The position numbers and the translations under genes are program-made. The notes under the pieces are model-generated. The model did no database searches, had not been told where the DNA came from, and saw only the letters and a list, made by a program, of their open reading frames with translations. A stretch of 64,000 nt of DNA from a virus (Duplodnaviria; Caudoviricetes). Location of the stretch: positions 43,603-107,602 of the IMG/VR virus record IMGVR_UViG_3300031867_000021. One strand, given 5' to 3'. Below, in pieces: positions 17,764 to 53,575 of this stretch. Every line of letters starts with the position of its first letter. The first letter of the stretch is position 1.

Positions 17764-19173
17764 TTACTTCTTGTAATTCGCATTGCGGGCAGCCATGATC
17801 CGCTTGCCCAGATCGGCTTCAGCCTTCCGCTGAGCAGCAGCCTTGTCAGAAGCCTTCTTGCGCTGCTTCAGGGCCAGATAATCATTCCGCTTGGCCTTAG
17901 CGGTCATGCCGCAGCTCTTCCGAATGGAAGCGGCAGCAGCATCGGCAGCAGCCTTGCGCTCGGAGGGAGGCAGCTTGGCAATCAGAGGTTTCACCGCCTT
18001 GACGGCAGCACGCATCGCATCACGGGCACGCTTGTCGGTCACGGGGGCGGTTTTGTTCTCGGCCGCCAGAGCCTCTTCCTCGTCCTCATCCTCTTCGTTG
18101 ATTTCTTCGGGATCAACGAAATGGGATTCGGGCTCTTCGGGATCCTCGTCGGGAGCAACCAGCTCTTCCTCGTCGGGATCGGCTTCCTCGTCGGCGTCGG
18201 TTTCGGCCTCTTCGGTCTTTTCCTCGCCCTCGGCCAGTTCGTCCTCCAGCTTCTGCAGAGGATCCTCTTCTGGAGCTTCGTCCAGCAGCTGCTTCGCCAC
18301 CAGCTTCTCCAGCAGACTGATCACCTTGTCCAGCTTGTCCTCATCCACAGCGGGCTTCGCGGCGGGATCCTGAGCTTCCTCTTCATCCTCATCCTCATCC
18401 TCTTCGGTAGCCGCCTTCTGGGTGGGCATCTTCTGCAGCAGATCGGTGATGGTGTCCAGCTTCTCGGTCACTTCCGCGTCCATCGCCTTCGGCTCTTCCT
18501 TCTCGGGCTCAGAAACGATCTCATCAATCGCCTCTACCGCCTCGGCAACTTCTTCGGGCTCAGCGTCCTTCGCAAAGGAAGCCAGCATCTTAGCCAGGAT
18601 TCCATGTTTGTTCTTGCGCATTCTGTGATTTCTCCTTTCGTTGTTTGGGGCAGAGTCTTTTATGCAAACGCGGTGACCGGCTCGCCCTTTGTCCACAATG
18701 GCGATATGGTTACCACGGATTTGCCGTTGAACCAGCTTTCCGTCTTCCTCGCAAAGCTCGTAGTTGTATCCGCAGGAAATCTCCCGCTTTCCGTCCAGAA
18801 CCTTCTGGATGGTGTCAGGGTCGGTGATGAACAGATCGGCAATCAGCATGTTCTTTTCATCCCCGGTTCCCCGGTGAACATTCTGCACATGCCCGCGAGA
18901 AAGCCATTTGGCATTCTCGGCGGTTACACCCTCATCACCGTCCGGGTGGTCATCCGTGACCGGCAGTCCCTCGAATGAGGCCATCGTCGTTTCAGAGAAA
19001 ACCTCTTCCTCCGGGCGATATACGGTGACCATCTCGTCCCCGTCCTGATCCACCTCTTCCGGCAGATACTTTTGCGTTCCTGACCGCGCAATCGGAACAT
19101 TCACGCAGATGAGATAGCCTTCCGGCTCTCGCTTGCGGATGTTGTCAGATATCCGAGTCGCGTAGTACAGCAT
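17764..19173 (-). CDS. DUF2213 prohead protease fused to acidic scaffold; internal scaffold start at 18621
   Basis: PEGYLICVNVPIARSG, PVTDDHP, EISCGY, NHIAIVDKGRAG; internal AAGGAG RBS plus in-frame ATG (MRKNKHG). Confidence 0.9.
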   Translation of the reverse strand: MLYYATRISDNIRKREPEGYLICVNVPIARSGTQKYLPEEVDQDGDEMVTVYRPEEEVFSETTMASFEGLPVTDDHPDGDEGVTAENAKWLSRGHVQNVHRGTGDEKNMLIADLFITDPDTIQKVLDGKREISCGYNYELCEEDGKLVQRQIRGNHIAIVDKGRAGHRVCIKDSAPNNERRNHRMRKNKHGILAKMLASFAKDAEPEEVAEAVEAIDEIVSEPEKEEPKAMDAEVTEKLDTITDLLQKMPTQKAATEEDEDEDEEEAQDPAAKPAVDEDKLDKVISLLEKLVAKQLLDEAPEEDPLQKLEDELAEGEEKTEEAETDADEEADPDEEELVAPDEDPEEPESHFVDPEEINEEDEDEEEALAAENKTAPVTDKRARDAMRAAVKAVKPLIAKLPPSERKAAADAAAASIRKSCGMTAKAKRNDYLALKQRKKASDKAAAQRKAEADLGKRIMAARNANYKK

Positions 19174-19198
19174 TTGCATCACCTTCCTTTCTGGCCAC

Positions 19199-19236
19199 AA
19201 TAAAAGCGCGCCGGTTAAATTCCGGTGCGCTTTATT
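19199..19236. terminator. Bidirectional terminator closing the effector array
   Basis: aataaaagcgcgccgg-ttaaatt-ccggtgcgctttatt. Confidence 0.7.
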
Positions 19237-19271: not shown

Positions 19272-19709
19272 TTATTCGCCATCTACATCCATCAGGAAGT
19301 ACAACGCCCTGTTGTACTTTGCCTGACGTCTCACGTCCCGCTCCGTGACTTCAGCAAAGCGGGCCAGATTGCTGTTATCAATCAGGTCGGATATCTTGAC
19401 CGCCCGAGCGATCGGATTCCTTTTGACCCGACACAGATAATCAGACCACATTTCACCCTTCCGATGCGTCAAAGCATCAACCGCATCTGCTATTTCGGCC
19501 CCGAATCCATCTCTGATTTCGTCAAGAGATACTTCCGTGTCCTCGACAACATCGTGCAGCCACCCGACAATCTTTTCCTCAGGATTTTTCAGCCTCTCCG
19601 CAACCCTTGCCGGATGGTTGATATACGGTTTCCCGGCCTTGTCGACCGCCCCGGCGTGAACCTTCCTTGCCAAAGCCTCGGCACCATCCAGAAGCTCAAC
19701 GCAGCCCAT
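19272..19709 (-). CDS. HD-domain small alarmone hydrolase (Aph1/Mesh1-like)
   Basis: HAGAVDKAGKPYINHP, LHDVVEDT, VKISDLIDN. Confidence 0.9.
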   Translation of the reverse strand: MGCVELLDGAEALARKVHAGAVDKAGKPYINHPARVAERLKNPEEKIVGWLHDVVEDTEVSLDEIRDGFGAEIADAVDALTHRKGEMWSDYLCRVKRNPIARAVKISDLIDNSNLARFAEVTERDVRRQAKYNRALYFLMDVDGE

Positions 19710-19715
19710 CCTGCA

Positions 19716-19967
19716 TCAACCTTTCTTTTCGGCCTTTTTGTAGACATCCCGGATCTTTTCCATCCAGTATTCCACATCTTCCTCTGGAACGTCGTCGTAC
19801 CACGTCCAGTCTCCGTTCCCTTCAGCAATACTGTCCTTTACCGGAGTGCGTTCCCATTCTCCCGGAACATCCGGCCGGAAAGTATAGCATTTTCCGCCGT
19901 CAAACCGGATCAACGTCATAAATCCATTGCTTTTGTTGATCATGTAGACATAATCAGTCTTTGCCAT
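19716..19967 (-). CDS. Candidate immunity protein for the alarmone synthetase (IapK position)
   Basis: Small acidic/aromatic ORF between synthetase and hydrolase; GGAGG RBS before MAKTDY. Confidence 0.65.
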   Translation of the reverse strand: MAKTDYVYMINKSNGFMTLIRFDGGKCYTFRPDVPGEWERTPVKDSIAEGNGDWTWYDDVPEEDVEYWMEKIRDVYKKAEKKG

Positions 19968-20010
19968 CGATTCCGCCCTCCTCTCCGGGCCCTCTTCCGG
20001 GCCCATATAC

Positions 20011-20039
20011 ATTATAACCTATTTTATAATTCCTGTCAC
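20011..20039 (-). promoter_or_regulatory. Promoter for immunity plus hydrolase genes
   Basis: GTGACA-17 bp-TATAAT on minus strand. Confidence 0.65.
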
Positions 20040-20047
20040 CTGCTTTT

Positions 20048-21652
20048 TCAGGGGAAATTCTTAATTCTTTCAATGTTTCTGGGCCTTTTTAAACCTGACA
20101 TATTATTATACATAATATTGCCAAGCTCGTCCTTCCGCTTCTGTGCCGTTTCCGGCTTTCTCTGCTCTTCGTACTGAGGATGCTGCACTTCCTTGCCGAC
20201 CAAGCTCTCCGGCGTATGGAACTGAAGCTCGAATCTCGTGCCGGTCGGTGATTCGAATACGCAGTTAACACCACGATAAGCTTTTTTGATGGAATAACTG
20301 TCCCACGTATTCTTGACTTTTACGGTTTTGTACCCCTTGGCTTCGAGCGCCTTTTGAGTCTTCTCGAAATGCTCCACCAGATTGTCAGTCGTACATGCCT
20401 GCGTGTAACGAACCAGATCGCTCAGATTGTCCGCAGCTTCTTCGTATGTCGGATAAGTTCCATCCGCCCTTCTTTCGGACATTGTTTCAGCGATCTTATC
20501 CGCCACACGGCAACCGCCATCGCTGCTGTCGGAAGCTTTCTTCAGCCGATATTCAAGTCCGAACATTTCAGTGCCAAGATCATCGGCAATATCACACAGA
20601 TCATTTGTGATTTTCGGCTCGTTGGCAAGATCCTTTTTGTATTTTTCAACGGCGTAAGGTTTCAGCTTGGATGAGATATTTCCCAGGAACTTTTTGGTCA
20701 ATGCCTTGCTTTCGGCTTCGGTCGGCCGCCCGGCCTGCGGTTTGCTCATGATTCCTTCATATCTCTCATAGATTTCGCGTTCCTCAGAGCCGGCAGGCCA
20801 CTGCTTCGCTTTTTCCTTGCACATCACGGACGCTTCACGACACGCACTGGCAACTTTATCAAGATTCTGCTTTGCGGCCTTGCTCAGCTTGCGCGGCGTC
20901 TCGGAACCAGTTCTCTGCGGATCGTAGGCCACTGAAGCCGGTTCCTTCATTGTTTCGGCATTCTTGGTTTTGGTTCCTTTTTCAAGCAGCCACGGGCCGT
21001 CGTGCTGCTCGACAAGCAGGTCACTGCTGATTCCGTTCTGTTTTGCGAACTTTTCGATGATCTTGCTTTCGCTGTACGTCTTTGAATAAGGCATCGTAAC
21101 AGATTCGCGCCCAGGAGCGGATATTGTGCAATACGGCTTTGACCTGCCAGACTTTCCGCGGCTTTCCCAATTGAGCCGGATCTTCGCTTCCTCTACATCA
21201 AAATTGGAAACATCCGGCTTCGTGCCACCCCATCTGCCATACCAATTTTCTGGAACACCGGTTTTTGTCGGCTTTGAACTTTTTCCGTTTCCCACGAAAA
21301 AAGTGGTGTAATTTCCAAACTCACTCTTGGCCGGTTTCACTGCAGCAGGCTTTGCGGCCGCTTTCGCCGCTCTTCTCGCAGCAGTCTGGGCTTTTCCTTC
21401 GGCCTTGACCTCGCCCATGGTCTTGCCCTTCATGTTGGAGGGTCCTTTGTCGATCTTTCCCTTGGTTCCTCCACCGCCGCCTTCGGAAAAATGAACCTTG
21501 GTTCCGCCCTCCAGCGTCCGCCAGCCGCTGTCCTCGTCATCTTTGGCGATTTTCTGCATGCAGGCATCGGCTTCCATCAGGCTTTCGATTTCCTCAGCTT
21601 TCAGCGAATCCAGGGCTTTCATTTTAGCCACGAGCTTCAGCAGTTTTCCCAT
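20048..21652 (-). CDS. Tagged effector 5: C-terminal RelA/SpoT-family alarmone synthetase (Apk2-like toxSAS)
   Basis: RLK...SDLVRYT...KVKNTW...YRGVN...FELQFHT; divergent N-terminal tag DDEDSGWRTLEGGTKVHF...GKIDKG. Confidence 0.85.
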   Translation of the reverse strand: MGKLLKLVAKMKALDSLKAEEIESLMEADACMQKIAKDDEDSGWRTLEGGTKVHFSEGGGGGTKGKIDKGPSNMKGKTMGEVKAEGKAQTAARRAAKAAAKPAAVKPAKSEFGNYTTFFVGNGKSSKPTKTGVPENWYGRWGGTKPDVSNFDVEEAKIRLNWESRGKSGRSKPYCTISAPGRESVTMPYSKTYSESKIIEKFAKQNGISSDLLVEQHDGPWLLEKGTKTKNAETMKEPASVAYDPQRTGSETPRKLSKAAKQNLDKVASACREASVMCKEKAKQWPAGSEEREIYERYEGIMSKPQAGRPTEAESKALTKKFLGNISSKLKPYAVEKYKKDLANEPKITNDLCDIADDLGTEMFGLEYRLKKASDSSDGGCRVADKIAETMSERRADGTYPTYEEAADNLSDLVRYTQACTTDNLVEHFEKTQKALEAKGYKTVKVKNTWDSYSIKKAYRGVNCVFESPTGTRFELQFHTPESLVGKEVQHPQYEEQRKPETAQKRKDELGNIMYNNMSGLKRPRNIERIKNFP

Positions 21653-21676
21653 GATCTCATCTCCTCGTTTTTTCGC

Positions 21677-21709
21677 ATAATAAAAGCCCGGCGCTTTTCG
21701 CGTCAGGCT
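21677..21709 (-). terminator. Cassette-boundary terminator copy 1
   Basis: ataataaaagcccggcgc-ttttc-gcgtcaggct. Confidence 0.6.
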
Positions 21710-21815
21710 GTGGAGTTATATATAAATCCCTGATATAATAATCAGGTCGTATTTGACATGGGCTAAAACGCCCGGAGCTGCCTGCTGGAATGACTCAGCA
21801 GGAGGTGATGCACAA

Positions 21816-21893
21816 ATGACGAACTATGAGTTATTCATGGCCATCATTGCTGTTGCAAGCCTCGTCTTGGCCGCTTTTGCGCTAAGACGCTAA
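21816..21893 (+). CDS. Type I toxin-like hydrophobic peptide MTNYELFMAIIAVASLVLAAFALRR
   Basis: GGAGGTG RBS partly occluded by a cctgctg/cagcagg hairpin; single TM helix plus basic tail. Confidence 0.7.
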   Translation: MTNYELFMAIIAVASLVLAAFALRR

Positions 21894-21894
21894 C

Positions 21895-21969
21895 AAAAAG
21901 CACCGGGTAGTAGCAGCTACTCGGTGCCAGGTCTTCCCGGTTACACCATAACCAGCAAGTCTCCATCGC
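21895..21969 (-). ncRNA. Candidate antisense antitoxin RNA
   Basis: TTGACA-18-TATAAT at 22005-21976 (minus); terminator hairpin 21900-21927 plus U-tract; convergent on the peptide gene. Confidence 0.6.
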
Positions 21970-22024
21970 AGTGTCATTATACGGCGCCGGGCGGTTCTGT
22001 GTCAAGCAGGGCCACCCTTTCTTA

Positions 22025-22303
22025 CTACACCATGATCGGTTCAAACTCTTCGTCGTTTTCCTCTTCTTCGCTGTTTTGCGCATTGACATAATCCATATAC
22101 GCAAAAGACAGGTTTTCGTCTGTCACAACAGGCTTGCCTCCCATGAAAACGATGAACACAGGAATGCCTATGCAAAGAGGCGGTTCGTCAGGATTCTGGA
22201 AATACATTCCATAAACCACGCATCCTTTCCAATCCGGCTTGCGCAGCAGATAAACGGCACCATTTTGTTTTCCGATCTTTATCGCTTCTTTTTCATAATC
22301 CAT
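22025..22303 (-). CDS. Candidate immunity protein for papain-fold effector
   Basis: Small ORF with acidic tail directly downstream of the effector. Confidence 0.55.
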   Translation of the reverse strand: MDYEKEAIKIGKQNGAVYLLRKPDWKGCVVYGMYFQNPDEPPLCIGIPVFIVFMGGKPVVTDENLSFAYMDYVNAQNSEEEENDEEFEPIMV

Positions 22304-22348
22304 TTTACCCCCCCCTCTCTCTTGCTTCTGCATGAGGAAACCGTTCTG

Positions 22349-24730
22349 TTAAGTCCAGGACAGACGTATCTCCGGGAACTGAACATTCATTCCGTTAAGC
22401 TCGGAATTGTCGTTCCGATTTACCGGAGCTTGTGCTTTATCCAGAATTTTATCGCAATATTCGAGATTTGGCAACGCGTTGTCTATGCGAAGAAGCTTTG
22501 GCCTCCAGTTTCCTCCAGTCTCGGAATTAAGAGAGATTCTATCTAAGTATTTCTCAATCTCTTCCCCTCTGTGTTCCACAGCCATCTTCGTCGGATTTGG
22601 CTGAGGATCGAACAGGACAAGCTCATCTCCACGCTTTTCGGCAATAATGACATGAGCACCAGCTCTGCGGCCTTTCCAGCAGAATGAGAATGTGAACATC
22701 TGCCCCGGCTTTATACTGTCATTCAGCCATTCTTTGGCACTCTTTGCGTTTAGTTTCTTTTCTGGAACAACATATTCAGGCATCTCACCGGTATCTGGAT
22801 CCATCCACGCGACAGCCTGATTGGCCGCGATTGCGAGCTGGGTTTGATCTGCATCTCCAGCTCTCAATTTGGCACTTACATCATAACCGCGTCGTCTTAA
22901 TGCATACGCAATTACGCAAGTCTGACAATTTCCTCTTTGCTTCTTTGTGGCCACATCCCTAAGCGGATTGGCTTTCCCCTGATCCGCTTCTTCATGAGAC
23001 ATATCTCCGCTTGCTCTTCTTGCAACCCCTGCCACCTCTCTCGGATGATACATCTCCTCAATTTCTTCGGGAGTATGAGTCTCATGCCATGCCTCAATCA
23101 GGTTTCTTCTGGCTTCCGCATGCATTTGACGCTCTTCTTCAGCTCGGGCTTTTTCGGCGGCTTTTTTCTGCTTTTCGAGTTCTTTTGCTTCTTTATTTTT
23201 TTGCTCCTGAGCTTCCGCGCTGCTTGGCTCTGCACCAACCATCATTTTTTCCTGCAACAAAATATAATCGCGAAGCGGTTTCTGAGCGTCCTTTCCGCGA
23301 ATCAGGTTTCCATTGAGGCTTTGCATGATATCTTCCGCAGCATAAAAGTGATCATGAGTGAGCTCGGAAACGCTTGAAGGCTTCTGAAGCATGGCATAAT
23401 CGCGATTCCACAAATAAGCGTTCCTGCTTCTGCGGCCTATATCAATATACTTATTGACTGTATCCAGCAAAAGCTCTTTTTCCTGGTCTGTGAGCCTGTC
23501 AAGCTCTTCCTGCCTGACAGGCCCTCCCATCATCGACCCGGCATCGCCATAGATCCTGCTTCTGAGCTGCCAGACAGCCCTCATTCCGTAATAGCTGAGT
23601 TCGTTCGGATTCATCTTGTCGTAGGCAACCTTGTCGATGAAATCCTGATTCAGCTTGGCAAACTTCTCTGCTGTATACGCAGATGTATTCTCTGGCTGCC
23701 TTCCAAGCGCACTGGAAAGATAGCTTTCCATCATGCCGCGTCTGGTCGGCTGATACCAGCTGTAATCTCCGTTTTTCGGAGTTTCAGGAGCAACAGGCTC
23801 CGGCGGCGGCGCTGGCCGTTCCTTAGCTCCGGCATTGTACAATATTTCATCTGGAACTTCGTTTCCTGAAGTCGGACAATTCAGCGCCTTGGCCTTTATG
23901 TCCATCCAGACAAAAGCATCATCTTTCTCCCATCTGGTGAACCCTTCTCCGTCATCTGGAACTTCAGAGCCGTTCGCCTCAATCATGCCATATTTGTTTT
24001 TCAGATAATCGACAACCTTCTTGTCGGAATCCGAAAGCTTTTCATCCATGTACTCCTTGGCATTTTCCGGCCACCCACGCCCTTCGGCTATGAAGTCGGT
24101 AAGCTCTTTTCGTTTTTCGAGCGGCTGGCACTTCATGACGAAGTCTTCCGGGGTCATATCTTCCGTGAACTTCTCGAGCCCGGAATCCCGCAGCACATCG
24201 TCACGCTCTGTGGCGGTCAGCATTCCACTTGTCCACAGTTTATTCAGCCTGTTCACAACTTCCTTGCTGTGGTTCATGTCTCTTTTAATGTCGCCGATCG
24301 CCTTTACCGCTTCGATCTGCCGTTCCCCGGAAAGGTTCTGAAGCCAGTCCTTTTTCTTCGCTCCGGAAGCCCCACCGGAACCGGAAGAACCGCCAGAAGA
24401 ACTCCACGGGCTGCCAGACGTACCGCCCGAGCCCGGTAGAGCAACCTTCGGATGCTTCGGCCGCATAGGTTCTCCACTCTTTTTGACGCCCCAGGATTCT
24501 CCGATCCGCTTCCCATTGAATCTTCCGCCGAATCCAGCCTTGATCTCCCCTGTAGAAGTCTCAAGCCGGAAATGCTTTCCCTCTTCAGAAGTCCGCCAAA
24601 CCTCTTCGTCGCTGGCAACCTCTTCAATGGCTTCCGCATCCAGTCCAAGCAATTTGAGGGCGAAAGGCAGATACTCACTCTTCGGATTAGCCTCTGCAAA
24701 ACCCAGGAACATCTTTCCGATTGCACTCAC
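22349..24730 (-). CDS. Tagged effector 4: C-terminal papain-fold (glutamine deamidase-like) toxin domain
   Basis: NCQTCVIAYALRRRGYDV...GAHV...FDPQ Cys-His-Asp triad; tag WRTSEEGKHFRLETSTGEIKAGFGGRFNG; GGAGGTG RBS plus GTG at 24730. Confidence 0.8.
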   Translation of the reverse strand: MSAIGKMFLGFAEANPKSEYLPFALKLLGLDAEAIEEVASDEEVWRTSEEGKHFRLETSTGEIKAGFGGRFNGKRIGESWGVKKSGEPMRPKHPKVALPGSGGTSGSPWSSSGGSSGSGGASGAKKKDWLQNLSGERQIEAVKAIGDIKRDMNHSKEVVNRLNKLWTSGMLTATERDDVLRDSGLEKFTEDMTPEDFVMKCQPLEKRKELTDFIAEGRGWPENAKEYMDEKLSDSDKKVVDYLKNKYGMIEANGSEVPDDGEGFTRWEKDDAFVWMDIKAKALNCPTSGNEVPDEILYNAGAKERPAPPPEPVAPETPKNGDYSWYQPTRRGMMESYLSSALGRQPENTSAYTAEKFAKLNQDFIDKVAYDKMNPNELSYYGMRAVWQLRSRIYGDAGSMMGGPVRQEELDRLTDQEKELLLDTVNKYIDIGRRSRNAYLWNRDYAMLQKPSSVSELTHDHFYAAEDIMQSLNGNLIRGKDAQKPLRDYILLQEKMMVGAEPSSAEAQEQKNKEAKELEKQKKAAEKARAEEERQMHAEARRNLIEAWHETHTPEEIEEMYHPREVAGVARRASGDMSHEEADQGKANPLRDVATKKQRGNCQTCVIAYALRRRGYDVSAKLRAGDADQTQLAIAANQAVAWMDPDTGEMPEYVVPEKKLNAKSAKEWLNDSIKPGQMFTFSFCWKGRRAGAHVIIAEKRGDELVLFDPQPNPTKMAVEHRGEEIEKYLDRISLNSETGGNWRPKLLRIDNALPNLEYCDKILDKAQAPVNRNDNSELNGMNVQFPEIRLSWT

Positions 24731-24751
24731 TGCTTTCACCTCCGTTTTGCC

Positions 24752-24783
24752 ATAAGAAAAGCCCGGCACTCTCGTGTCGAGCT
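24752..24783 (-). terminator. Cassette-boundary terminator copy 2
   Basis: ataagaaaagcccggcac-tctc-gtgtcgagct. Confidence 0.6.
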
Positions 24784-24801
24784 ATGGTTAAATTCCTCTG
24801 C

Positions 24802-25017
24802 TTAAGCGTTTTTCTCTATCCAGTCTTTTGCAGCATCTGGAACTTCAACATTTTGGTCTTCAACATAGTCCATATATGGATCAAAACGAAGAAACTGGTT
24901 CGGTGCAACACCGAAGCCACCAAATGTTTTTCCGTTCCCGTAATAATATCTTCCATCTGGCAATGATACAAGCACTACGCCACGGTCGTCTTTGTAGAGC
25001 ACCTTTAATCCTTCCAT
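24802..25017 (-). CDS. Candidate immunity protein for effector 3
   Basis: 71 aa; start overlaps the effector 3' end. Confidence 0.55.
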   Translation of the reverse strand: MEGLKVLYKDDRGVVLVSLPDGRYYYGNGKTFGGFGVAPNQFLRFDPYMDYVEDQNVEVPDAAKDWIEKNA

Positions 25018-27188
25018 CTGATTTCGACCCCCCGTTGCTTTGCTAAACTCTCAATTTGTGCCCTGTCTTGGGAATTCTTGGGAATTTCTAAATATTCGAT
25101 ATCAGATGTTTGGATTCCTCCGTGAAACTGCAACTCTACATAATCCGTTGCGGTTTTTCCACTCTGGGCTATTTCGCTAAAAGTCCTTTCTGTGCGCTCA
25201 AGAACCTCTTTTGGTAGGCTTGCTCCAGAAAACGGATTCATTCCAAGAGAGTATATCTTTGGATCCGTCACAAGTGTTGGGACTTGCGAATTTCCAAGCT
25301 GCTTCTGCTGCAGGCTATCCCCAACGGTGAATGTCGTCCGGGTTTTTACATTGTCTTTTTTAAAGACTATTCTACAGTCGCCGTACATCTTGGCGCGTTC
25401 TGCGTGATCAAGAAAACCATATAGCTCATATTGATCATCGCCGATTTCGAGAGCATCCCCGCCATTGAAGAGATCCACGGCCAACGATTTCCGCATTTGA
25501 ATATCTTTGTGCCCATTCGATTCTCCGGTTTCAATCTGTGACTTCATTCTCCCATCTTGAAGGATCCCTAAAATGGCATTCGACTTTGTTCTGGCAGAAA
25601 AATCATGCTTATCCAGGGCATCCTTCAGGATTCGCTCATACTCCGGCGTCCGCTTTGAGTATGTATCGATTGCTGCTGCCTGTTCAGGGCTCGTTGAGGA
25701 ATATCCTCGTTTCACTTCATCGATATAATTATCATACGATTCTTTGTAAATGGGCATCAGCTCATCGTAAGCCTTCATCGTTGGAGTTTCCCGATAGCTT
25801 GGAGCCGTAACAGCAGTTTCACTGGCGCTTGCACTTTCTGTTCCCGCCGATTCATTTTGGCTTTCAGTCTCAGATTCCAACTTTGGCTGCTCTGCCTGCG
25901 TCTCTTTTTTCCCTTTGGAATTTTCCGGCGTGAAAGTATACTCAAACCCATACTCAGCGGCATGCTGCTTATAAAACTCATGGAACGGCTCGGTTTCCAG
26001 CCTTCGGATCTCGTCTTTCCGCTCCTGCGCAGCCTTTTTAGAAAGCTCATCATAACCAGATTTATCGAAATATGCCTGCAGGATCTCATTTGAGGCTCCG
26101 GCGTCCTTCATCTTGACCCATGTTTGAGCAATTTCTTCAAGCTTTCGGCGAGTTTCGTTCCCCTTCAGGTTTGCATCTGCTTGTTTCATCAGATCCAGGA
26201 CTGAAACCTCGGCGGGAACGGCTTTCTCCAAAGCATCCCTCATCCCGAGCCATCCACCGTTCACTTCTCCCCTGCCATACCTCTGATTCCTCAGCGTATA
26301 AGTCCCTTCAGGCGTGCTGACACGAATTTCAGTCGCTCCGTAGCCGAAATCATCCAGATCGTCATAGGAGAATGTCCCTCCGGCCGGATGATTGTGAAGC
26401 GAAATCGCTCCCGGCAGATGTTCTCGATTGGTTCCAACCGTCATGCCGACAGAATGCTTATCGCCCTTGGCCTGCGCCCTGATTTCACCATCTGGGCCAA
26501 CGATGAAAGACTGCTCGTTCTTGAGATTGGCGATCCTCTTTTCAATCTTCCTGAGCGCCTTGTCCTGCTGCGGGGTATTAGTGGGAAAAGGCTTTGCGTC
26601 CTGATGCTCTTCATCCCACAAACCGCGCTTTTTAAGCTCTTCCCGGCAAGCTTCCATCTTGGCCTGCGTCTCCGCCATCGAATCAAGATAGCTCTTTCTC
26701 ACGCCAGCATATTCCTGCTTTTTGGTCTCAGGAAAGGTTTCGTATTCCTTCAGAAATTTTTTGGCCTTTTGCAGGTCTTCGTTGTGTCTTCCGAACGCTC
26801 TGCCAACACCCGTATCTCCAAAGCCTTGAACCTTTTGCCGCAATGATTCCACGTTAGCTTTCTGACTTTCGGTCAGCGCCGGAGCCTTCGGCGTTTCCAC
26901 GGTTTTTGGAGCCGCTGCAGCCTGTTTTCTGCCGGCGGCGCTATTTTTGAAGACTGAACCAAGCTTTTCACCGTTGAACTTTCCACCGAACCCGGCTTTA
27001 ATCTCTCCGGTCGTGGTTTCCAACTTAAAATGGCGCCCCTCTTCTGAAGTGCGCCATACTTCCTCGTCGGCAGTTGTTTCTTTTTGACTATTGGCATCAA
27101 AGCCAAGCATTTTTAAGGCAAGATGTAGCGATGCGGTTCTGGGGCTTGTCTTTGAATACTCATAAAACAATCGTCCAATGGTTTTCAT
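25005..27188 (-). CDS. Tagged effector 3: JAB/MPN-like domain plus C-terminal DUF3626-like (putative ADP-ribosyltransferase fold) domain
   Basis: EQSF...HNHPAGGTFSYDD JAMM-like motif; KSQIETG..YG..TTFTVGDS..YVELQFHGG; tag WRTSEEGRHFKLETTTGEIKAGFGGKFNG. Confidence 0.7.
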   Translation of the reverse strand: MKTIGRLFYEYSKTSPRTASLHLALKMLGFDANSQKETTADEEVWRTSEEGRHFKLETTTGEIKAGFGGKFNGEKLGSVFKNSAAGRKQAAAAPKTVETPKAPALTESQKANVESLRQKVQGFGDTGVGRAFGRHNEDLQKAKKFLKEYETFPETKKQEYAGVRKSYLDSMAETQAKMEACREELKKRGLWDEEHQDAKPFPTNTPQQDKALRKIEKRIANLKNEQSFIVGPDGEIRAQAKGDKHSVGMTVGTNREHLPGAISLHNHPAGGTFSYDDLDDFGYGATEIRVSTPEGTYTLRNQRYGRGEVNGGWLGMRDALEKAVPAEVSVLDLMKQADANLKGNETRRKLEEIAQTWVKMKDAGASNEILQAYFDKSGYDELSKKAAQERKDEIRRLETEPFHEFYKQHAAEYGFEYTFTPENSKGKKETQAEQPKLESETESQNESAGTESASASETAVTAPSYRETPTMKAYDELMPIYKESYDNYIDEVKRGYSSTSPEQAAAIDTYSKRTPEYERILKDALDKHDFSARTKSNAILGILQDGRMKSQIETGESNGHKDIQMRKSLAVDLFNGGDALEIGDDQYELYGFLDHAERAKMYGDCRIVFKKDNVKTRTTFTVGDSLQQKQLGNSQVPTLVTDPKIYSLGMNPFSGASLPKEVLERTERTFSEIAQSGKTATDYVELQFHGGIQTSDIEYLEIPKNSQDRAQIESLAKQRGVEIRWKD

Positions 27189-27213
27189 CGTTATCACCTC
27201 CCCACAAAAACGC

Positions 27214-27242
27214 TTTACGCAATTTTGTCTATGTGCTATACT
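27214..27242 (+). promoter_or_regulatory. Antisense-oriented promoter
   Basis: TTTACG-17-TATACT with extended -10 TG. Confidence 0.6.
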
Positions 27243-27244
27243 TT

Positions 27245-27353
27245 AGGCATCAAGGGGAAACCCTGCAGGCCGTAACAGGCCCCCGACCAAACGGCACGGT
27301 CGAGGGAACGAGTTACGGCTGAAGCTGACGCCATGCCTCTTGCCAAGGATGGC
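27245..27353 (+). ncRNA. Candidate structured small RNA downstream of the CdiA-like nuclease gene
   Basis: Nested stems aggcat/atgcct, ggg-gaaa-ccc, ggccgtaac/gttacggct, cgacc/ggtcg directly after a promoter. Confidence 0.5.
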
Positions 27354-28919
27354 TCAGCGTGAAAGCTCCGATTGTTTCGGAGCTTTTCTTGCTTTATATT
27401 CAAGGCATTTATATGCCCCGTCTTTGTCGATTATTAAAACGCTCAAGTCCTGTTTTGAGCGTTTCGTGAGAGCCTTTTCGATTTTATTTTCTGCTTCTTC
27501 GATAGTGGCGCCACACGCACTTATATCAAAAATCAAGCCTCTGCTGTTTGGGGCAATTTGATTTAAGCCACTCCGAATCCTCAAGTCGAACGCATTTTGT
27601 GAATTGCTTTCCGGCGTTTTCAGATCCCAAAGTCCACCGCGCCAGAAATAATCAGGGTTGCTTTCATCTCTCAAAAAGTTTTCAGACAGAACAATCAAAT
27701 TCCCGCCGAATAGCTGATGCAATCTTTTCCCCATTTTTATCTCTGCGGCACTATGTTTTTTATCAACCCTGGTCATAACATAGAATGCGCCGGAACCTGG
27801 TTCTGCTTCCTTCTCGAACTCTTCCGTTTTGTCTCTTATTTGTTTTTCGGCTTTTGTGCCAGATTCTTTTCCCTGAGTATCGTATGTGGTTTCCGTCTCC
27901 CGCATGGTTGCATCAGCCGGCGCAACCTGCCGGCCTATAATCGCGACTGGAATAGTCTCGACCCCGTTCATCATGGCAGCCAGAGCCCTGTGCCGACCTT
28001 CCTGATTTTCTGTCGCATAGTCCAGATAAGGAATCGGGAATTTCTCCCCGTTTTCCATCAGATCGGCGTATTTATTGACCTTATAGGCTTCGGTTCCCGC
28101 AACAGTGTTTTCCAAGGTGCTGTTCGTGAAAATCTCGAAAGCGCATCTTTCCAGATATTCTTTCGGGCTCATCTCGACAACCTTGGCGCTTCCGTTCTTC
28201 AATTTTTCCCGCAGAGCCGGAACATCCGATTCCAGCGTGAAGCCCTCGAAATCTTTCCTTGTCGTTTCCTTAAGCTCCGGGTTGCCCCACTCGGCGATTT
28301 CATCAGAACGCTTCTGACGCTTCAGCTCATCCATTTTCCCGCCGTACTCTTCGGCCTCCTGCCCGGCCTTCTGAGACTCAGCAAAGCAGTCATCATATTC
28401 CTTCTTGAGCTGTTTGCCCTTCTCGGTATACCAGCCGAAGAGCCCGGCATATTGCGGCCCCATTGACTTCGCGTCGTCATCCGGGTACTCGATTTCATTC
28501 TTCAGCTCTCTGCTGATTTCCAGGAACCTCTTTGAGGCAGCGTCTTTCCTCTTCGTGGCATCAGCCCACTTGGTTCTTGCCGCTTCAAAATCCGGGTCAT
28601 TGATGAGGTTCTTCTCTCCCACGACAGAGGAAATCATTTTCGCTGTGCTTTCAGGCCGGATCCTCTTCGGCTTAGCTGCAGCTGGTTTCTTCGCAGACTG
28701 GCCGCCGCTGAAAGCTTCCTTCAGCGTCTCGCCGTTGTGCTTCCCTCCAAAACCAGCCTTGATCTCACCGGTACCAGATTCGAGCTTTATATGATGGCCT
28801 TCCTCGGTTGTTCTCCAGACTTCTGCATCATGTCCGAAAAGCTTCACCAGGAACTGAAGGGCCTTGTTCTTCCCTTCCCTATGCGCATAGGCTTTGTACA
28901 GCTCAGCTCTGATTCCCAT
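27354..28919 (-). CDS. Tagged effector 2: ParB/Srx-like domain plus C-terminal CdiA_C-like PD-(D/E)xK tRNase domain
   Basis: QEGRHRALAA; NPDYFWRGGLWDLKTP...IRSGLNQ; tag WRTTEEGHHIKLESGTGEIKAGFGGKHNG. Confidence 0.72.
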   Translation of the reverse strand: MGIRAELYKAYAHREGKNKALQFLVKLFGHDAEVWRTTEEGHHIKLESGTGEIKAGFGGKHNGETLKEAFSGGQSAKKPAAAKPKRIRPESTAKMISSVVGEKNLINDPDFEAARTKWADATKRKDAASKRFLEISRELKNEIEYPDDDAKSMGPQYAGLFGWYTEKGKQLKKEYDDCFAESQKAGQEAEEYGGKMDELKRQKRSDEIAEWGNPELKETTRKDFEGFTLESDVPALREKLKNGSAKVVEMSPKEYLERCAFEIFTNSTLENTVAGTEAYKVNKYADLMENGEKFPIPYLDYATENQEGRHRALAAMMNGVETIPVAIIGRQVAPADATMRETETTYDTQGKESGTKAEKQIRDKTEEFEKEAEPGSGAFYVMTRVDKKHSAAEIKMGKRLHQLFGGNLIVLSENFLRDESNPDYFWRGGLWDLKTPESNSQNAFDLRIRSGLNQIAPNSRGLIFDISACGATIEEAENKIEKALTKRSKQDLSVLIIDKDGAYKCLEYKARKAPKQSELSR

Positions 28920-28932
28920 GCGCATCACCCCT

Positions 28933-29772
28933 TTACGAAATCTTCCCGAACTTCTTTTTAATCTGGTTCTTCGTCCAGTAACCTACTTTTCCGTGATAAT
29001 GCAGCCTGACCGAATCCGGCAGGTTCCTGATATCAACAACCGGCTCCTGATAGCACCGGCAGTTGAAGGTATTTCCCGCGTGATACCGTCCATAAGAACT
29101 CTGACCCGCACCCGGAAACAGAGCTTCAGGGTTTGGCGGATCATCATAGAACACGAGAATTCCATCCATTGAGCCGTGGGAATGTCTCGTGCGCTCATCA
29201 TGGCAGGAATGCCAGATATAAGCCTTGATTCCAAGGTTCTCGGCTCTGGCCTGCGTGAGTGCCGCATTTGCTTTGCCGCACTCTGTCCGCGCGATGCACT
29301 TCAGATTTCTGGCAATCTTCTCCGGCATGATCTTCCGAAGCTCTTCCTCAATCTCTTCCGGCCGCCGGCCCTTCTGCGTCTCCCGCTCGGTGTAGGCGGT
29401 TATATAAGCGGCCCATTCCATCGGGACTGTCTTGATGTACTTTGAGTTTTCGGCAATCAGCTCTTCAACCCGCCTGCCGACAGGCCCTTTCATCTCTTCC
29501 ATCAGGGCTTTGTACATCTCCCGGCCGTAGGTGTTGCGGAGAACGGCTTCCCGCCAGGAATGAACAGACTCATCTCTCTCCCGCTTGACCATGTTTCCGA
29601 CAACCTCATCCACCCGCTGCCCAAGGGTCAGCCGATGAACCCACTCTTTCATCTTCTGGGTAACGTTGCCTGAATTGATGGCCCCGGATCTTGTCTGCTG
29701 CGAGATCCCGGAAAAGATTTTGCACAGGTTCTTCCAGAATGATCGTTCCGTCGAACGTTTCACGGCAATCAT
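28933..29772 (-). CDS. MuF/SPP1 gp7-like minor head protein without toxin extension
   Basis: IARTE, YIWHSCHDERTRHSH, HAGNTFNCRCY. Confidence 0.9.
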   Translation of the reverse strand: MIAVKRSTERSFWKNLCKIFSGISQQTRSGAINSGNVTQKMKEWVHRLTLGQRVDEVVGNMVKRERDESVHSWREAVLRNTYGREMYKALMEEMKGPVGRRVEELIAENSKYIKTVPMEWAAYITAYTERETQKGRRPEEIEEELRKIMPEKIARNLKCIARTECGKANAALTQARAENLGIKAYIWHSCHDERTRHSHGSMDGILVFYDDPPNPEALFPGAGQSSYGRYHAGNTFNCRCYQEPVVDIRNLPDSVRLHYHGKVGYWTKNQIKKKFGKIS

Positions 29773-30067
29773 CTTTCATCACCTGCCATCTGAAGGTAAA
29801 ATTAAGCGGCTGGCGGCATCGACGGAATGCCGCCATTTAAGCGAATCTATATTCAGGAGGGAAATCCGGAATGAAGAAAAGGAGATTACTTCATGAAAAA
29901 GAAGAGTGAGGGGATTCCGTCTATCGCACCGCTTTGAGATCCGGACAGGCGAACCGGACTCGCGGACGTCCGGCCACCACCCCTTTCGTCCGCTTCCCCC
30001 GCTAACGCATCAGAACCCTCCAGCTGGAGGCCCTTCTGGAGGAAACGGATTGGGGCTGTTTTAAGGT

Positions 30068-30100
30068 ATAAGAAAAGCCCGGCGGCAATCCGTCAGGCTT
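30068..30100 (-). terminator. Cassette-boundary terminator copy 3
   Basis: ataagaaaagcccggcgg-caat-ccgtcaggctt. Confidence 0.6.
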
Positions 30101-30126
30101 CTCCCTGGAACTCTATTTATACTTTT

Positions 30127-30358
30127 TAAGCGGGTGAGGATTTGCACCTCACATGATCCATTCGTTATTGCTCTATAGTGCCAACTTAAGGTTTGTTTTG
30201 CTCTTCAGCTTGCCGCCCTTGCCTCTTTTAGTTTATAAAACTATACCAGTCTCATTGGTTCTGGAAGGTCTTATCAGTTGGATCACATCACGCAACTCCA
30301 TGCAGGGAGCGACCCTTGAATGTCTTTACACTACGTCTACCTGTTCCGCCACCGCTCA
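30127..30358 (-). ncRNA. tRNA-like RNA (acceptor, D and T arms) with a large insert in place of anticodon/variable arms
   Basis: 5' TGAGCGG TG GCGGAACAGGTAGACG ... GTGAGG TGCAAAT CCTCAC CCGCTTA 3'. Confidence 0.6.
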
Positions 30359-30375
30359 ATAAAGTATTATTGAAT

Positions 30376-30607
30376 TTAAAGAAGCATGTCCACCGATGAA
30401 CATGCTTTTTCGACCGGGTCAAATAATTCTCCCCGGCTCTGGCATAGCTTTTCAACCCTGCACAGGTCTTCGTAGCCGCTTCGGCCTATTGCAAGATCGA
30501 ACTCCCTGCGGAGTTCTTCCAAACTCATATTGCGCCCGCAGCCGAATTCATCCTGATACTTATGAACCACTTCATCCCTGAACTCTGCGTATGATTTCGT
30601 GGCTCAT
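30376..30607 (-). pseudogene. Possible frameshifted paralog of the upstream candidate immunity gene
   Basis: RBS-linked ATG at 30607 is one base out of frame with the ORF ATKSYAEFRDEVVHKY...KACSSVDMLL. Confidence 0.35.
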
Positions 30608-30632
30608 CACCCCCCCCATGACCGGCAGCCGC

Positions 30633-30878
30633 TTATTCGAAACACATCTCAAGGCAATAAGAAGTGCTGGCCACGCAGGCTTTATAGAAGGCTTCGTCGC
30701 TCAGATCATCATCTTTTCCCTTGCCTTCTTCGTAGCCTTTATATCGCCCATCGATCGTTTCCATCTCTGAGTTGATATAAGCTTCAAAATCCTCTTCGGA
30801 CAGGTCATAACAGGCAAGCGCTTTTTTCAGATCGGCCTTTACATCATTGACGAACTGGTCTCGACTGATTTTTCCCAC
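30633..30878 (-). CDS. Candidate immunity protein for the portal-fused domain
   Basis: 81 aa, acidic, 3 bp after the portal stop, GGAGG RBS. Confidence 0.55.
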   Translation of the reverse strand: MGKISRDQFVNDVKADLKKALACYDLSEEDFEAYINSEMETIDGRYKGYEEGKGKDDDLSDEAFYKACVASTSYCLEMCFE

Positions 30879-30881
30879 CGC

Positions 30882-33800
30882 TTACACCTCCATGCTGTCG
30901 TCCCGAATCTTTTTCGCCTTGGAATAATCTTCCTCAGGTTTGTGAGAAGCCACATATTCATCACAGTTCTTTCCGTGCGCTTTCCATATTTCTTCCCTGC
31001 TGCGCCCGGTATACTTGAAGAATACAACCGGCTCTTTCTGGTCTCTGGTTCTGTCCCAATCCGGCGGCCTTATCCCTTCGATATCAGCAAACTCGCAATA
31101 GCTTGTCGGCTCGAATCCGTTCTTTGTGTAAAACTCGTACAAACCGCCAAACGCATCAAGTTTATTTCCGCCCTTCATTCTTGCGAACTCAAGGAGCTGA
31201 CTTCCTGTGACTCCACGATCTCCGGGATGTTTGCACACGCTCACGATATCGCCATCGTGAACCGCAACAGCAGAACCGCCCTTTGTCGTGAAGCACTGCA
31301 TTTTCGCATAATCCTCCACGGAATAGGTTCCATCCACACGCCAGGATTTATCTGGCTGCACGTCCTGCACCGCTTTCTTTGCCGCATGGAAAGTATCGTA
31401 AAACTTCTGCGGCTCAGTTTGCTGGAAATTATCCGGGTTCAGCGGGGCTTTCGTTCGTCCGCTCCCGGTTCCACTTCCATTATACGCCGAATTATTCTGA
31501 TTTACAATACTTTCGGACGTATTTTCTCCACCCGCATTATACTGCGTTTCCGGCTCTCTGGCAACGGGCGCCATCGGAACGTTTTCGCCCCAGAACATGG
31601 ACTGCTGTCCAGGAACCTCCACCCGTTTCTCGACTCCCGCATACTTTTCAAGCAGATCGTCCGAGAAGTTCGTTTCAATCTCCGCGCCCAGGAGCTTTGC
31701 CTGGAGCTGAATTCTGGCGATTACCGCTTCCGGGTGATCGCTTTCCCATTTTTCTTCCTGAGCGAACGGGACATCACTGTACTCTTCAGTGATGTTTGCC
31801 AGAATGTCCTGTTCTCTCGGAGTCAGACGCTCTGCCCACTGGGCAGGTACTGACTTAAGCCCGAACTCATTCGTAGCTCGAATTTCACCATTTCTGGCCT
31901 GATTCCATTCATCGGAATACTGAACTGAATTGGCCAGATTGTTGAGCGCATTATCCGCTTCGTCCAGATCAACAGCAGGATTCTCAAGAACCTTTTTGGC
32001 ATTTTTTCGGGCATTTTCATAATCCCGAAGCTCCGTCTTTATGGTTGCTGCCTTTTTCTCGCTTCCATCTGAATACTTGCTGAAACTTACGGGAATATCC
32101 GGCATCTTTGCCTTGGGAGGCGTGACCTTCGGCGGAGCGGCGACCTTTGTCCCCTTCGCTCTGGCCTTGGATCCGCTGCCGGATCCCCACTGCTCACCAA
32201 GCTTCTTACCATTGAACTTGCCGCCGAAACCAGCTTTGATTTCGCCGGTTGAAGTTTCCAGCTTGAAGTGCCGGCCTTCCTCGCTCGTCCTCCACGCTTC
32301 AGCATCAATGCTGAACAGATTCTGAACAAACTTGGCCGTCTGCTCCCGGCTGTGGTCGGCAGCGTACTGCTTAATCAGCCTGACCCTCTGGTCCGAAAAA
32401 CCGGAATAATCCGGCTTATCCCGACCGATGAGAGACTTGACCTTTTTGCGCACCCAATCAATGACCCCACTGTTGGGCTCTTTGCCCTCTCTGGCCTCTT
32501 CGGGCTTTCGGGCGGGAGTTTGGTCATTCTCCTGCTCTGCCTGCTCTTTGGGCTCATTCTGGGCTTCCGCAGGCACGCTCTTCTGCGTGGCCTTCGGCTC
32601 CTCTTCCGGCTTCTCCGCTGGCTCGGCTTCAGGTTTTGAGACTGGCTTCTGTTCCGGCTTCATTTCCGGTTTTTCCGGCCTTTCCTCCGGCTTTACTTCC
32701 GGCTTTTCCTCCGTGGCTTCAGGCTTCTCTTCCTCTGGCCCTTCTTCAGGCGGCATCATACCGCCCATGGCGGCCATCGGATCCATTCCTCCGCCGGGAC
32801 CACCATCTGGCCCCTCAGGTCCTTCAGGACCGCCCGGCCCCATGCCGCCCATCATGCCGCCCATGGGGTCGCCCATGCCTTCGCCTTGATCAACCTCGGT
32901 TTCGGCGCTTTCAACAATTTCATCCGTAATGGATCCCCATGCGCCGACATCCTTGCCGCTCTTCTGCAGTTCTATCAGAGCGGTCTGCTGCGAGATCAAC
33001 CCGGCAGAGAACGCATTAATCACGGTTCCGGTCACCTGCGAGATAATATTCGCCCTTTCGGAAGGCGTAGTCACCTGCAGAGGCTCGAACACGACATGCA
33101 TGCCATCCGGGATCTTCCCCCAAAGACTCATGCACATGACCGGCAGCAGCTTCTCAATCGCCGGGCGCAGGTTGCGCTCCTGCAGCTGAGCCAGCATTTC
33201 ATAATAGTTCTTCATGTCCGATTCTCCGGTGGCATTCATGCCCTGCGGAGAACGTCCATACAGCTTGGTCGCCGGAATTTCGGCGGCACCTGCCATATCC
33301 ATCATGAAGGACTCATAGATTTCAGACAGACCGGAGAAGGAATAGGGATGCTGTTCGTACCCGTCCTGCGATCCCATGATCATCATGCCGAAAGAATTCC
33401 GGTAACGGTTTTCTTCCTCAATGCTCTCAATGATCGCCTGCTTCTGCTTCTCCGTGCCCATGCCCATGATTTCACCAAAATCGGCCATTTTAAGCACGCC
33501 GACATTGGCCTGAAACACGAGCTGAGCAATATTCGCGCTGGTCGCATTTCTCTTCTGAAGCTCTTCATAAACGTGCTCCAGCTCAGATGCTCCCCAGTAG
33601 CTTTCCGAAACCTCTTCCATGATCGGAAGCATCCGTCCCCGGAACATCAGGAGCCGGGAATGATGAATCCGCATGGTCTGGTTTGTCTCGTTATTCAGCC
33701 GGACTGTGTAATATTTCGGATATCCGAACTCGATATCGTCCATATCCTCTTCCAGCTCAACAGAAGGATCCAGTCCGCTCGTCCGATCTACGACAATCAG

Positions 33801-34292
33801 GCCCCGGAAGCAACCCGGCACCAGATCGTCATAATCCAGCGGTTCATCCAGCATATCCTCCTGCCCCTTGATCACGATCACGGCAGCAGCACCGCCATAA
33901 AGCCTCGCCCAGCGCAGCGCATTGGTGATTTCCTGCTTCACGCTGTGCTTGGATTCCAGCTCAGCCAGCTCATCCAGCTTATCCTGATCAAGATTGGAGG
34001 AAATCGTATACCAGGAGCGGGTCATATCTTCACAGGGGGTGTCAATAATCCGCTTCGCGATCCAGTTTTCACGGTAAGCCACGGTCAGCGTCTCGTAATC
34101 CCGGCTGATATAATTCCGCTCGAAATCGTTCGCCTGACTTAGTAATGAAGCTTCACCGAGATAGGCCAACCTGTTAATGAACCCGTCATTGGCAGACAGG
34201 ATTTTCAGAGGCAACGCGCCACGCTTGGTCGCATCCGCGCCCTGATTCTGAATCTGTCTCGCACGAATGTTGCGTCTTTTTTTGCTCGACAT
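30882..34292 (-). CDS. Portal protein (DUF1073-like) fused to low-complexity linker, shared tag and GNAT-like domain (effector 1)
   Basis: WIAKRIIDTP, WARLYGG, IHHSRL, AGAAEIPATKLYGRSPQGMNATGESD; internal WRTSEEGRHFKLETSTGEIKAGFGGKFNG; C-terminal GDIVSVC..GSQLL..GGNKLDAF..LYEFYTKNGF. Confidence 0.88.
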   Translation of the reverse strand: MSSKKRRNIRARQIQNQGADATKRGALPLKILSANDGFINRLAYLGEASLLSQANDFERNYISRDYETLTVAYRENWIAKRIIDTPCEDMTRSWYTISSNLDQDKLDELAELESKHSVKQEITNALRWARLYGGAAAVIVIKGQEDMLDEPLDYDDLVPGCFRGLIVVDRTSGLDPSVELEEDMDDIEFGYPKYYTVRLNNETNQTMRIHHSRLLMFRGRMLPIMEEVSESYWGASELEHVYEELQKRNATSANIAQLVFQANVGVLKMADFGEIMGMGTEKQKQAIIESIEEENRYRNSFGMMIMGSQDGYEQHPYSFSGLSEIYESFMMDMAGAAEIPATKLYGRSPQGMNATGESDMKNYYEMLAQLQERNLRPAIEKLLPVMCMSLWGKIPDGMHVVFEPLQVTTPSERANIISQVTGTVINAFSAGLISQQTALIELQKSGKDVGAWGSITDEIVESAETEVDQGEGMGDPMGGMMGGMGPGGPEGPEGPDGGPGGGMDPMAAMGGMMPPEEGPEEEKPEATEEKPEVKPEERPEKPEMKPEQKPVSKPEAEPAEKPEEEPKATQKSVPAEAQNEPKEQAEQENDQTPARKPEEAREGKEPNSGVIDWVRKKVKSLIGRDKPDYSGFSDQRVRLIKQYAADHSREQTAKFVQNLFSIDAEAWRTSEEGRHFKLETSTGEIKAGFGGKFNGKKLGEQWGSGSGSKARAKGTKVAAPPKVTPPKAKMPDIPVSFSKYSDGSEKKAATIKTELRDYENARKNAKKVLENPAVDLDEADNALNNLANSVQYSDEWNQARNGEIRATNEFGLKSVPAQWAERLTPREQDILANITEEYSDVPFAQEEKWESDHPEAVIARIQLQAKLLGAEIETNFSDDLLEKYAGVEKRVEVPGQQSMFWGENVPMAPVAREPETQYNAGGENTSESIVNQNNSAYNGSGTGSGRTKAPLNPDNFQQTEPQKFYDTFHAAKKAVQDVQPDKSWRVDGTYSVEDYAKMQCFTTKGGSAVAVHDGDIVSVCKHPGDRGVTGSQLLEFARMKGGNKLDAFGGLYEFYTKNGFEPTSYCEFADIEGIRPPDWDRTRDQKEPVVFFKYTGRSREEIWKAHGKNCDEYVASHKPEEDYSKAKKIRDDSMEV
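31479..31564 (-). promoter_or_regulatory. Two tandem internal promoters in the portal extension
   Basis: TTGCCA-17-TATAAT (31564-31536) and TTGTAA-17-TATAAT (31507-31479). Confidence 0.55.
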
Positions 34293-35558: not shown

Positions 35559-36070
35559 TTGGCATCGCTCCCGTCTTGGCTGCTGAGCTGTGCAAAGGCA
35601 TCATCCAGGGCAGAATAACCGCTGATGCCCTGCTTCAGGCTCTCTTTTTCGACCTCCAGCTTCTGCTGTTCGATGAGCATCTTCGGATCCTGTCCAAGAA
35701 CCTCAAGAACCTTTTCAGCCGCCCGGGTATCCCCTTTCTGCGCCTTCTGCGACAGAGCAACAGCGGTCACTACGGCATTGGTGATGTTGTCCGTCTCCGG
35801 GTTCATTCCGTAATGAATCAACTGGTCTCTGACGGCGTTGGACAGTTGGGGCTTGCTTCCCCAAACCATTTCCAGAATGCTTCGGAAGCTTCTTTCTTCC
35901 CTGCGAACCTGCTGTGACCTTTTGCCACCCTTGGATTGAGCTTTTCTCGCCTCCGGGTCGCCACTCTTGAACTGAGTCTTGACGCCCTTCTTCAGGTTTT
36001 CATTGCTCTTCTTCCGGCTCGCTGCCACCACTTCCGGGGGCTTCTTCTTAGTCGCGCCCACGATGATCAC
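35555..36070 (-). CDS. terS: Terminase small subunit
   Basis: NENLK...KGGKRS...KAQKGDTRAAE; overlaps terL start. Confidence 0.75.
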   Translation of the reverse strand: MIIVGATKKKPPEVVAASRKKSNENLKKGVKTQFKSGDPEARKAQSKGGKRSQQVRREERSFRSILEMVWGSKPQLSNAVRDQLIHYGMNPETDNITNAVVTAVALSQKAQKGDTRAAEKVLEVLGQDPKMLIEQQKLEVEKESLKQGISGYSALDDAFAQLSSQDGSDAK

Positions 36071-38108: not shown

Positions 38109-38193
38109 TTTTGCCTCCTAACAGTCCTTTTGGATAACAAAAAACTCCGCGATTGGTGAATCCGCGGAGTGCGTCGCCGGAAATCCGGCATCA

Positions 38194-39084: not shown

Positions 39085-39171
39085 TATCAGCCCACCCCCA
39101 CAGAAGAAAACAGACAATGAAAAACCGCAGGAACTTCATCCTGCGGCCTCCCTACACTTCTTGCCGATTAT

Positions 39172-52382: not shown

Positions 52383-52411
52383 TATTTTAAATTCAAGGAG
52401 GGCAACTGAAT

Positions 52412-53035: not shown

Positions 53036-53053
53036 ACAAAGAGGAACATCGTC

Positions 53054-53563: not shown

Positions 53564-53575
53564 AGAGGTATAGAA

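Follow-up and report, generated by a model that had tools for sequence, protein, structure and literature searches.

Why do five otherwise different proteins encoded among the head genes of a tailed phage carry the same short module? The window analyzed here is a stretch of 64,000 nucleotides (bases 43603-107602 of the 107.6-kb virus record IMGVR_UViG_3300031867_000021, Duplodnaviria; Caudoviricetes). On its minus strand, between terminase and the predicted prohead protease, the portal protein and four free-standing genes each contain a module of about 30 residues with the pattern W-R-T..G-x-H..G-E-I-K-A-G, here called the header. A sequence-only reading of the window had regarded the module as a tag for loading effectors into the capsid or ejecting them from it. 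The module proves to be real, widespread, linked to head genes and fused to many conflict domains, but the single tag resolves into two separable parts, a leader and the header, on either side of a probable protease site. Based on sequence comparison and predicted folds, we have moderate confidence that the five proteins are cargo packaged in the head and cut by the prohead protease, each enzyme then starting with the header.

The header module in the five proteins

The header Trp codons are at 32294 in the portal (residue 667), at 28817, 27056 and 24598 in the first three free-standing genes (residues 38, 48 and 58; cargo 1 to 3 hereafter) and at 21523 in cargo 4 (residue 44). The modules span 32208..32294, 28731-28817, 26970-27056 and 24512-24598 in the four close copies. 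The four share 21-28 of 29 residues, yet their DNA is only 64-74% identical, and 12-19 of the identical residues are encoded by a different codon; synonymous change is saturated and conservation is at the protein level. A header profile scores the close copies at 43-47 bits and the divergent fifth at 16.7 bits, whereas the next open reading frame (ORF) on the contig reaches 2.9 bits and nothing in 20 shuffled ORF sets exceeds 5.2 bits. Preceding the close headers is a leader of 31 residues that ends in Asp and aligns without gaps (32304..32396 in the portal; 28827-28919, 27096-27188 and 24638-24730 in cargo 1 to 3). Cargo 4 (20048..21652) has a shorter and different leader, followed by its divergent header (21434-21523). 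Thus all five copies first reported are present on the minus strand and their conservation is of the kind described, while the divergent copy had been placed too low, at about 21507, and the shared leader is a property of the four close copies.

AlphaFold2 models the header as three antiparallel strands forming a beta-meander (predicted local distance difference test score 89). No family in Pfam, PHROGs, NCBIfam, the PDB sequences or the ESM Atlas matches it, and a fold search gave a best Z of 3.3, 38 residues being too few for a meaningful match. In the literature, of which coverage was partial, we found no description of the module. Three possible relationships were rejected. A similarity to choline-binding repeats (P0107) was a false positive, one to cold-shock proteins gained no further support, and derivation of the leader from a scaffold helix was set aside as the leader profile matched no DUF2213 protein.

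A probable protease site in front of the header

Of 280 unique header copies, 269 have an Asp at a distance of 3-8 residues ahead of the Trp (37% expected), a count inflated by search profiles that included the Asp columns and by the acidity of the region. In phages with PF06381/DUF2213 heads, the same Asp site opens the portal domain in 9/9 loci, ends the protease domain in 10/10 and is also present in the capsid N-terminus. In the window, the DUF2213 protease domain ends at such a site (codon at 18657), and the major capsid protein (PF09950; 16277..17239, minus strand) has one at D15 (codon at 17197). In the L019/L021/L023 clade the R-x-D form occurs in the head proteins and the cargo alike, while the clade of the window mostly has a hydrophobic residue-x-D in front of the header, matching its head proteins. 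In Mu-portal phages the header is preceded by Y-S/A-A, a motif enriched in the scaffold-position protein (5 versus 0.5 expected, p 0.002), and in PHB04, Mecenats66 and L029 by h-x-K-A/S, which the cultured phages PHB04 and Mecenats66 also have in their protease and capsid genes. The form of the site follows head type: x-D with DUF2213, Y-S/A-A with Mu portals and h-x-K in others. The site ahead of the header is probably a cut site of the head protease.

The candidate enzyme for this cut is the DUF2213 protein (17764..19200, minus strand). DUF2213/Pa193 gp24 has been published as a putative scaffold. The domain has an invariant His and Ser, and its model aligns with T4 gp21 (Z 12.9, root-mean-square deviation 2.7, 139 aligned residues; Foldseek probability 0.99), so a gp21-type protease fold is predicted. 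E217 (L025 8133-11363) encodes the same protease family, and its capsid protein reads A-M-D64-S65; similar sites are repeated in Pbunavirus capsid and scaffold proteins. The cryo-electron microscopy model of the E217 capsid protein begins at residue 66 (PMC10329688), and that of Pa193 likewise, which is consistent with cleavage after Asp.

Several observations weigh against cleavage and packaging as proposed, the inflated Asp count among them. The start of the E217 model is a limit of visibility that its authors left undecided between cleavage and disorder (PMC10329688), and it is one residue off the predicted cut; the Pa193 and E217 portal boundaries are not at the Asp site. The non-Asp site classes comprise two and three loci, and the statistics are not tree-based. 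The head regions of E217 and CL131, close relatives with the same head, were searched and contain no header, so the header is dispensable for head assembly. Lastly, for no tagged protein did we find data on virion proteomics, expression or binding.

Distribution of the header

Iterated header profiles retrieved 103 proteins at first and then a family of 1,112 protein clusters (50% identity, E up to 0.001). Of the loci that were fetched for inspection, most are in head modules. Two lineages of DUF2213 phages have a tagged gene near the lysis genes, 25-40 kb from the DUF2213 gene. Carriage of the header is independent of fusion to MuF, as first proposed: it is found on separate genes, even at that distance, and the MuF protein of the window (PF04233; 28933..29772, minus strand, 279 residues) has no C-terminal extension and no header. 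Scans of GenBank phages and GTDB genomes that required near-exact words did not find the window-type header.

What follows the header is as varied as had been predicted, with 91 proteins carrying a single N-terminal header sorting into 53 C-terminal clusters. Among 88 representatives are ADP-ribosyltransferases (10 and 3), six portals, two DUF2213 proteins, two Tox-PL1 proteins, PBECR1, LPD13, topoisomerase IB and a phosphatase; tagged homologues bear LPD1, LPD13, PBECR1/3, InPase and ART-PolyVal. Polyproteins hold up to 6 headers, one per internal unit and often without a leader, and 78 of 150 units of such multi-header polyproteins have a free-standing tagged homologue. In P0122 and P0103 there is almost no leader ahead of the header. 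In phiAC-1 (L037 3935-5614), the header (E 5e-9) lies in an unannotated extension, upstream and in frame, of the gene that occupies the protease-scaffold position.

The array itself is polymorphic, as comparison with the close relative L009 shows: the skeleton is shared, but L009 carries two further tagged genes, lacks the CdiA_C unit and has cargo 1 and 2 joined into one protein that retains both headers.

A model for the header and its alternatives

In the reading we favor, the five proteins would be cargo of the head interior with the layout leader, protease site, header, enzyme. They would be made alongside the head proteins and enter the prohead by co-assembly, for which the basic leader helix, the header or a tether to the portal could be responsible. 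Next, the DUF2213 protease would cut after Asp, at the site that also marks boundaries in portal, protease and capsid protein, and enzyme units from a free gene, a portal tail or a polyprotein would be freed with the beta-meander header as their new N-terminus. At or after the cut, the header may mark the site, hold the unit in the DNA-filled head or lead its exit with the DNA. Once delivered, the nuclease, (p)ppApp synthetase, papain-fold amidase and others would act on the newly infected cell, while the adjacent small genes, two with their own promoter-like sites, would protect the producer or lysogen.

The header could instead be a loading address: binding to scaffold, portal, MuF or another such head component would then suffice for packaging, as with the T4 capsid-targeting sequence. 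It is the most conserved part of the tagged proteins, P0122 and P0103 carry it with almost no leader, genes distant from the head module retain it, and the portal copy could nucleate recruitment. However, the header lies behind the probable cut site, not ahead of it, and it is retained where an internal unit is tethered already. Moreover, unrelated motifs of the HPR, GSGNF and RLxYG types replace the WRT module behind the same leaders and sites in L002, L003, L019, L021, L023, L030 and L033, and do so on orthologous cargo: in L021 the synthetase has an HPR header where that of L019 has a WxT header, and an HPR header is also present on the Tox-PL1 orthologue of L002. Because internal polyprotein units keep the header and unrelated motifs replace it behind the leader, loading probably does not depend on it alone, and we regard the loading address as an unlikely explanation. 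As internal units would be packaged by way of the first unit and still keep their headers, the header most likely fits a role at or after cleavage better than one in loading.

Alternatively, the header may serve protease recognition or folding where domains join, or may be a small domain that binds nucleic acid, and play no part in addressing or ejection, its DNA serving as homology for cassette shuffling. The header always follows the site, cassettes swap at the header between close relatives, and the weak similarity to cold-shock proteins (E 0.0016) would fit nucleic-acid binding. Against this, the sites in portal, capsid and scaffold have no header behind them, so cleavage should not need one; the header is conserved as a protein while its synonymous change is saturated; and neither a cold-shock nor an OB fold was prominent among the fold-search matches. 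We find this explanation improbable. Least probable by our estimate is that the proteins are toxin-antitoxin or lysis-released effectors merely clustered in a late operon: in the literature found, no MuF toxin has been demonstrated in particles and PMC11699363 describes what these toxins do as unknown, and genes in the immunity position have their own promoter-like sites, but the header is fused directly to portals (6/88) and to the prohead protease DUF2213 (2/88), is in frame upstream of the phiAC-1 protease-scaffold-position gene, and is preceded by a site that co-varies with head type, which is hard to explain outside the prohead.

Packaging and cleavage of the five proteins may be one instance of a general cargo grammar in many tailed phages, in which a head-protease site is followed by a small folded header that, once it is the N-terminus of each freed enzyme, is read by the ejection machinery. 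Any domain behind the header, from anywhere in the genome, would then be packaged and injected, with the site re-tuned for each head protease (Asp, Tyr-x-Ala and Lys types) and the header common across head types. We consider this extension, taken as a whole, possible but rather doubtful.

Proposed cargo enzymes and candidate immunity genes

All of the cargo and candidate immunity genes are on the minus strand. The portal (30882..34292, 1136 residues) has its PF06381 domain at residues 69-421, followed by an acidic linker, the internal leader and header (residues 633-696), an unassigned helical unit and a C-terminal domain that matches no family and is GNAT-like by eye only. Cargo 1 to 3 carry two units each, the second being assigned by Pfam. 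Cargo 1 (27354..28919; ORF 27354-28928) combines a ParB/Srx-like unit (EGRHRA at residue 310) with a CdiA_C-type PD-(D/E)xK nuclease. In cargo 2 (25005..27188; ORF 25005-27197) a unit with an HxH..D metal motif, JAB-like by inspection, precedes DUF3626. Cargo 3 (22349..24730; ORF 22349-24769) has an unassigned middle unit and a Tox-PL1 papain-fold domain that retains C615, H706 and D721.

Cargo 4 is an Apk2-like alarmone synthetase, as it matches 8vx3 (E 4e-9) and a XopAD-type model and has the Apk-type motifs DLVRYT, YRGVN and ELQFH, with F instead of Y in ExQ(Y)H. Together with a small ORF of about 85-98 residues (19716..20012) and an HD-domain alarmone hydrolase (19272..19709), it reproduces the three-gene order apk2-iapK-aph1 reported in PMC12226406, with the MuF domain replaced by leader and header. 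Upstream of it, a sigma-70-type promoter matching at 12/12 positions (22005-21976, minus strand) is followed by about 320 non-coding bases with hairpins (21660-22005). This stretch is 97% identical in L009 and is possibly a small RNA or a leader of the synthetase operon.

A different enzyme domain at the end of each protein, as the sequence-only reading had it, is borne out for the four free-standing genes, with the portal end lacking a family match. Its count of small ORFs, after four of the five proteins, and of one structured RNA stands. The ORFs are an acidic one of 81 residues after the portal (30633..30878), with a counterpart 95% identical at the equivalent position in L009; one of 71 residues (24802..25017), which accompanies the DUF3626 domain in L009; one of 93 residues (22025..22306), with homologues after the Tox-PL1 gene in L009 and L002; and the ORF in the iapK position. 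None of them has a credible match among protein families or in the PDB. Promoter-like sites are located at 22474-22446 for the 93-residue ORF and at 20039-20011 (11/12) for the ORF in the iapK position. Given that the small ORFs accompany their upstream toxin domains in relatives and that two have promoter-like sites, they look as expected of immunity genes and we treat them as candidates.

The CdiA_C gene has no small ORF after it; a structured intergenic stretch (27225..27360, minus strand) takes that place. CdiA_C-type nuclease genes without a downstream immunity ORF are also present in L010 and in three gut phages including Faecalibacterium phage Aster. In the window (27225-27380, minus strand) and L010 (15420-15600), a multi-hairpin stretch overlaps the CdiA_C stop codon, where the immunity ORF would be expected, and is a candidate RNA antitoxin or regulatory element. 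The structured stretch of L010 has a folding z of -4.4, and three distant homologues have one short hairpin each (z -0.4 to -2.0); a conserved RNA antitoxin for CdiA_C is thereby only partly supported.

The locus and its surroundings

The minus-strand order is terminase, PF06381 portal, bare MuF, four long ORFs with interspersed small ORFs, HD protein, DUF2213, decoration protein and PF09950 capsid protein, after which come contractile-tail-like genes. Integrase-like (53576-54718) and repressor-like ORFs near 52400-54700, recognized by inspection, suggest a temperate phage, and PF00589 is present in one header-tagged relative. Directly upstream of terminase are a DNA cytosine methylase and three ParB-N-like genes (36048-39117), a block common to L010 and L002.

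Ahead of muF is a GC-rich non-coding stretch (29800-30100, minus strand), partly conserved in L009. A tRNA-like element (30129-30352, minus strand; L009 ~5135-5290), undetected by ARAGORN and Rfam, has an acceptor stem, D-arm and T-arm that resemble the ends of tRNA-Leu/Ser and are conserved in L009, with unrelated inserts in place of the anticodon region (~170 nucleotides here versus ~95 in L009).

Outside the window, terminase-, portal- and capsid-like genes occur once more at record positions 1-37000, all without headers, and the record segment at 17.8-19.1 kb is repeated at 106.0-107.3 kb. The record is possibly two phages joined in assembly.

Comparison with known systems

A close parallel in layout, with no sequence similarity seen, is the T4 capsid-targeting sequence, found on internal proteins IPI-III and Alt and processed by gp21 (PMC3012670). 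In both systems, free-standing genes of many kinds have no more than an N-terminal signal in common and are accompanied by a prohead protease of the gp21 fold, with packaging and trimming predicted here. Unlike the T4 signal, which is about 10 residues and is removed, the folded module of about 30 residues would remain on the mature protein; it also recurs internally and in the portal, and its proposed cargo consists of toxin-like enzymes with candidate immunity genes.

MuF polymorphic toxins, including Apk2-IapK-Aph1 and Bxa (PMC5576092, PMC12226406, PMC11699363), are encoded in the portal/terminase module of temperate phages; the tagged genes here likewise lie in the head module of an apparently temperate phage, between portal and DUF2213. 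MuF toxins and the window have CdiA_C, Tox-PL1, the Apk2-like synthetase and the apk2-iapK-aph1 order in common, the toxin-immunity gene pairs of the window being candidates. In contrast, the four cargo proteins have no MuF match, MuF is short, and several predicted toxins per phage are on separate genes. Effector fusions to portal, MuF and head protease have been described already (PMC9503650).

Polyvalent proteins (Iyer et al. 2017, PMC5512222) are also strings of conflict domains encoded alongside virion genes, for which packaging and processing have been proposed. In the passages of that account considered here, no shared header is named at unit boundaries and processing is ascribed to internal metallopeptidases, whereas the head protease is implicated here and most units also occur as free genes. 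The polyvalent core domains MPTase, InPase and methylase-helicase have no Pfam match in the window proteins; such domains are present in the tagged homologues L030, L033 and PHB04. In P1, an N-terminal stretch of similar length, the 30-residue packaging signal of DarB (PMC9024508), targets cargo to the head, but the Dar proteins have no consensus signal, and the header profile matched none of DarA, DarB, DdrA/B and Hdf.

With a defined header and a predicted cut site, it becomes testable how MuF toxins and polyvalent proteins enter and leave the capsid. As a sequence marker, the header also singles out more than a thousand protein families without annotation in which to look for candidate injected effectors, and DUF2213 gains a predicted protease fold with a predicted Asp specificity. 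If the header were sufficient, it would be a portable tag for phage protein delivery. The arrangement of header and probable cut site is a variant of the logic of T4 internal proteins, MuF toxins and polyvalent proteins; what is new here is that the module is a header behind the site and not simply a leader.

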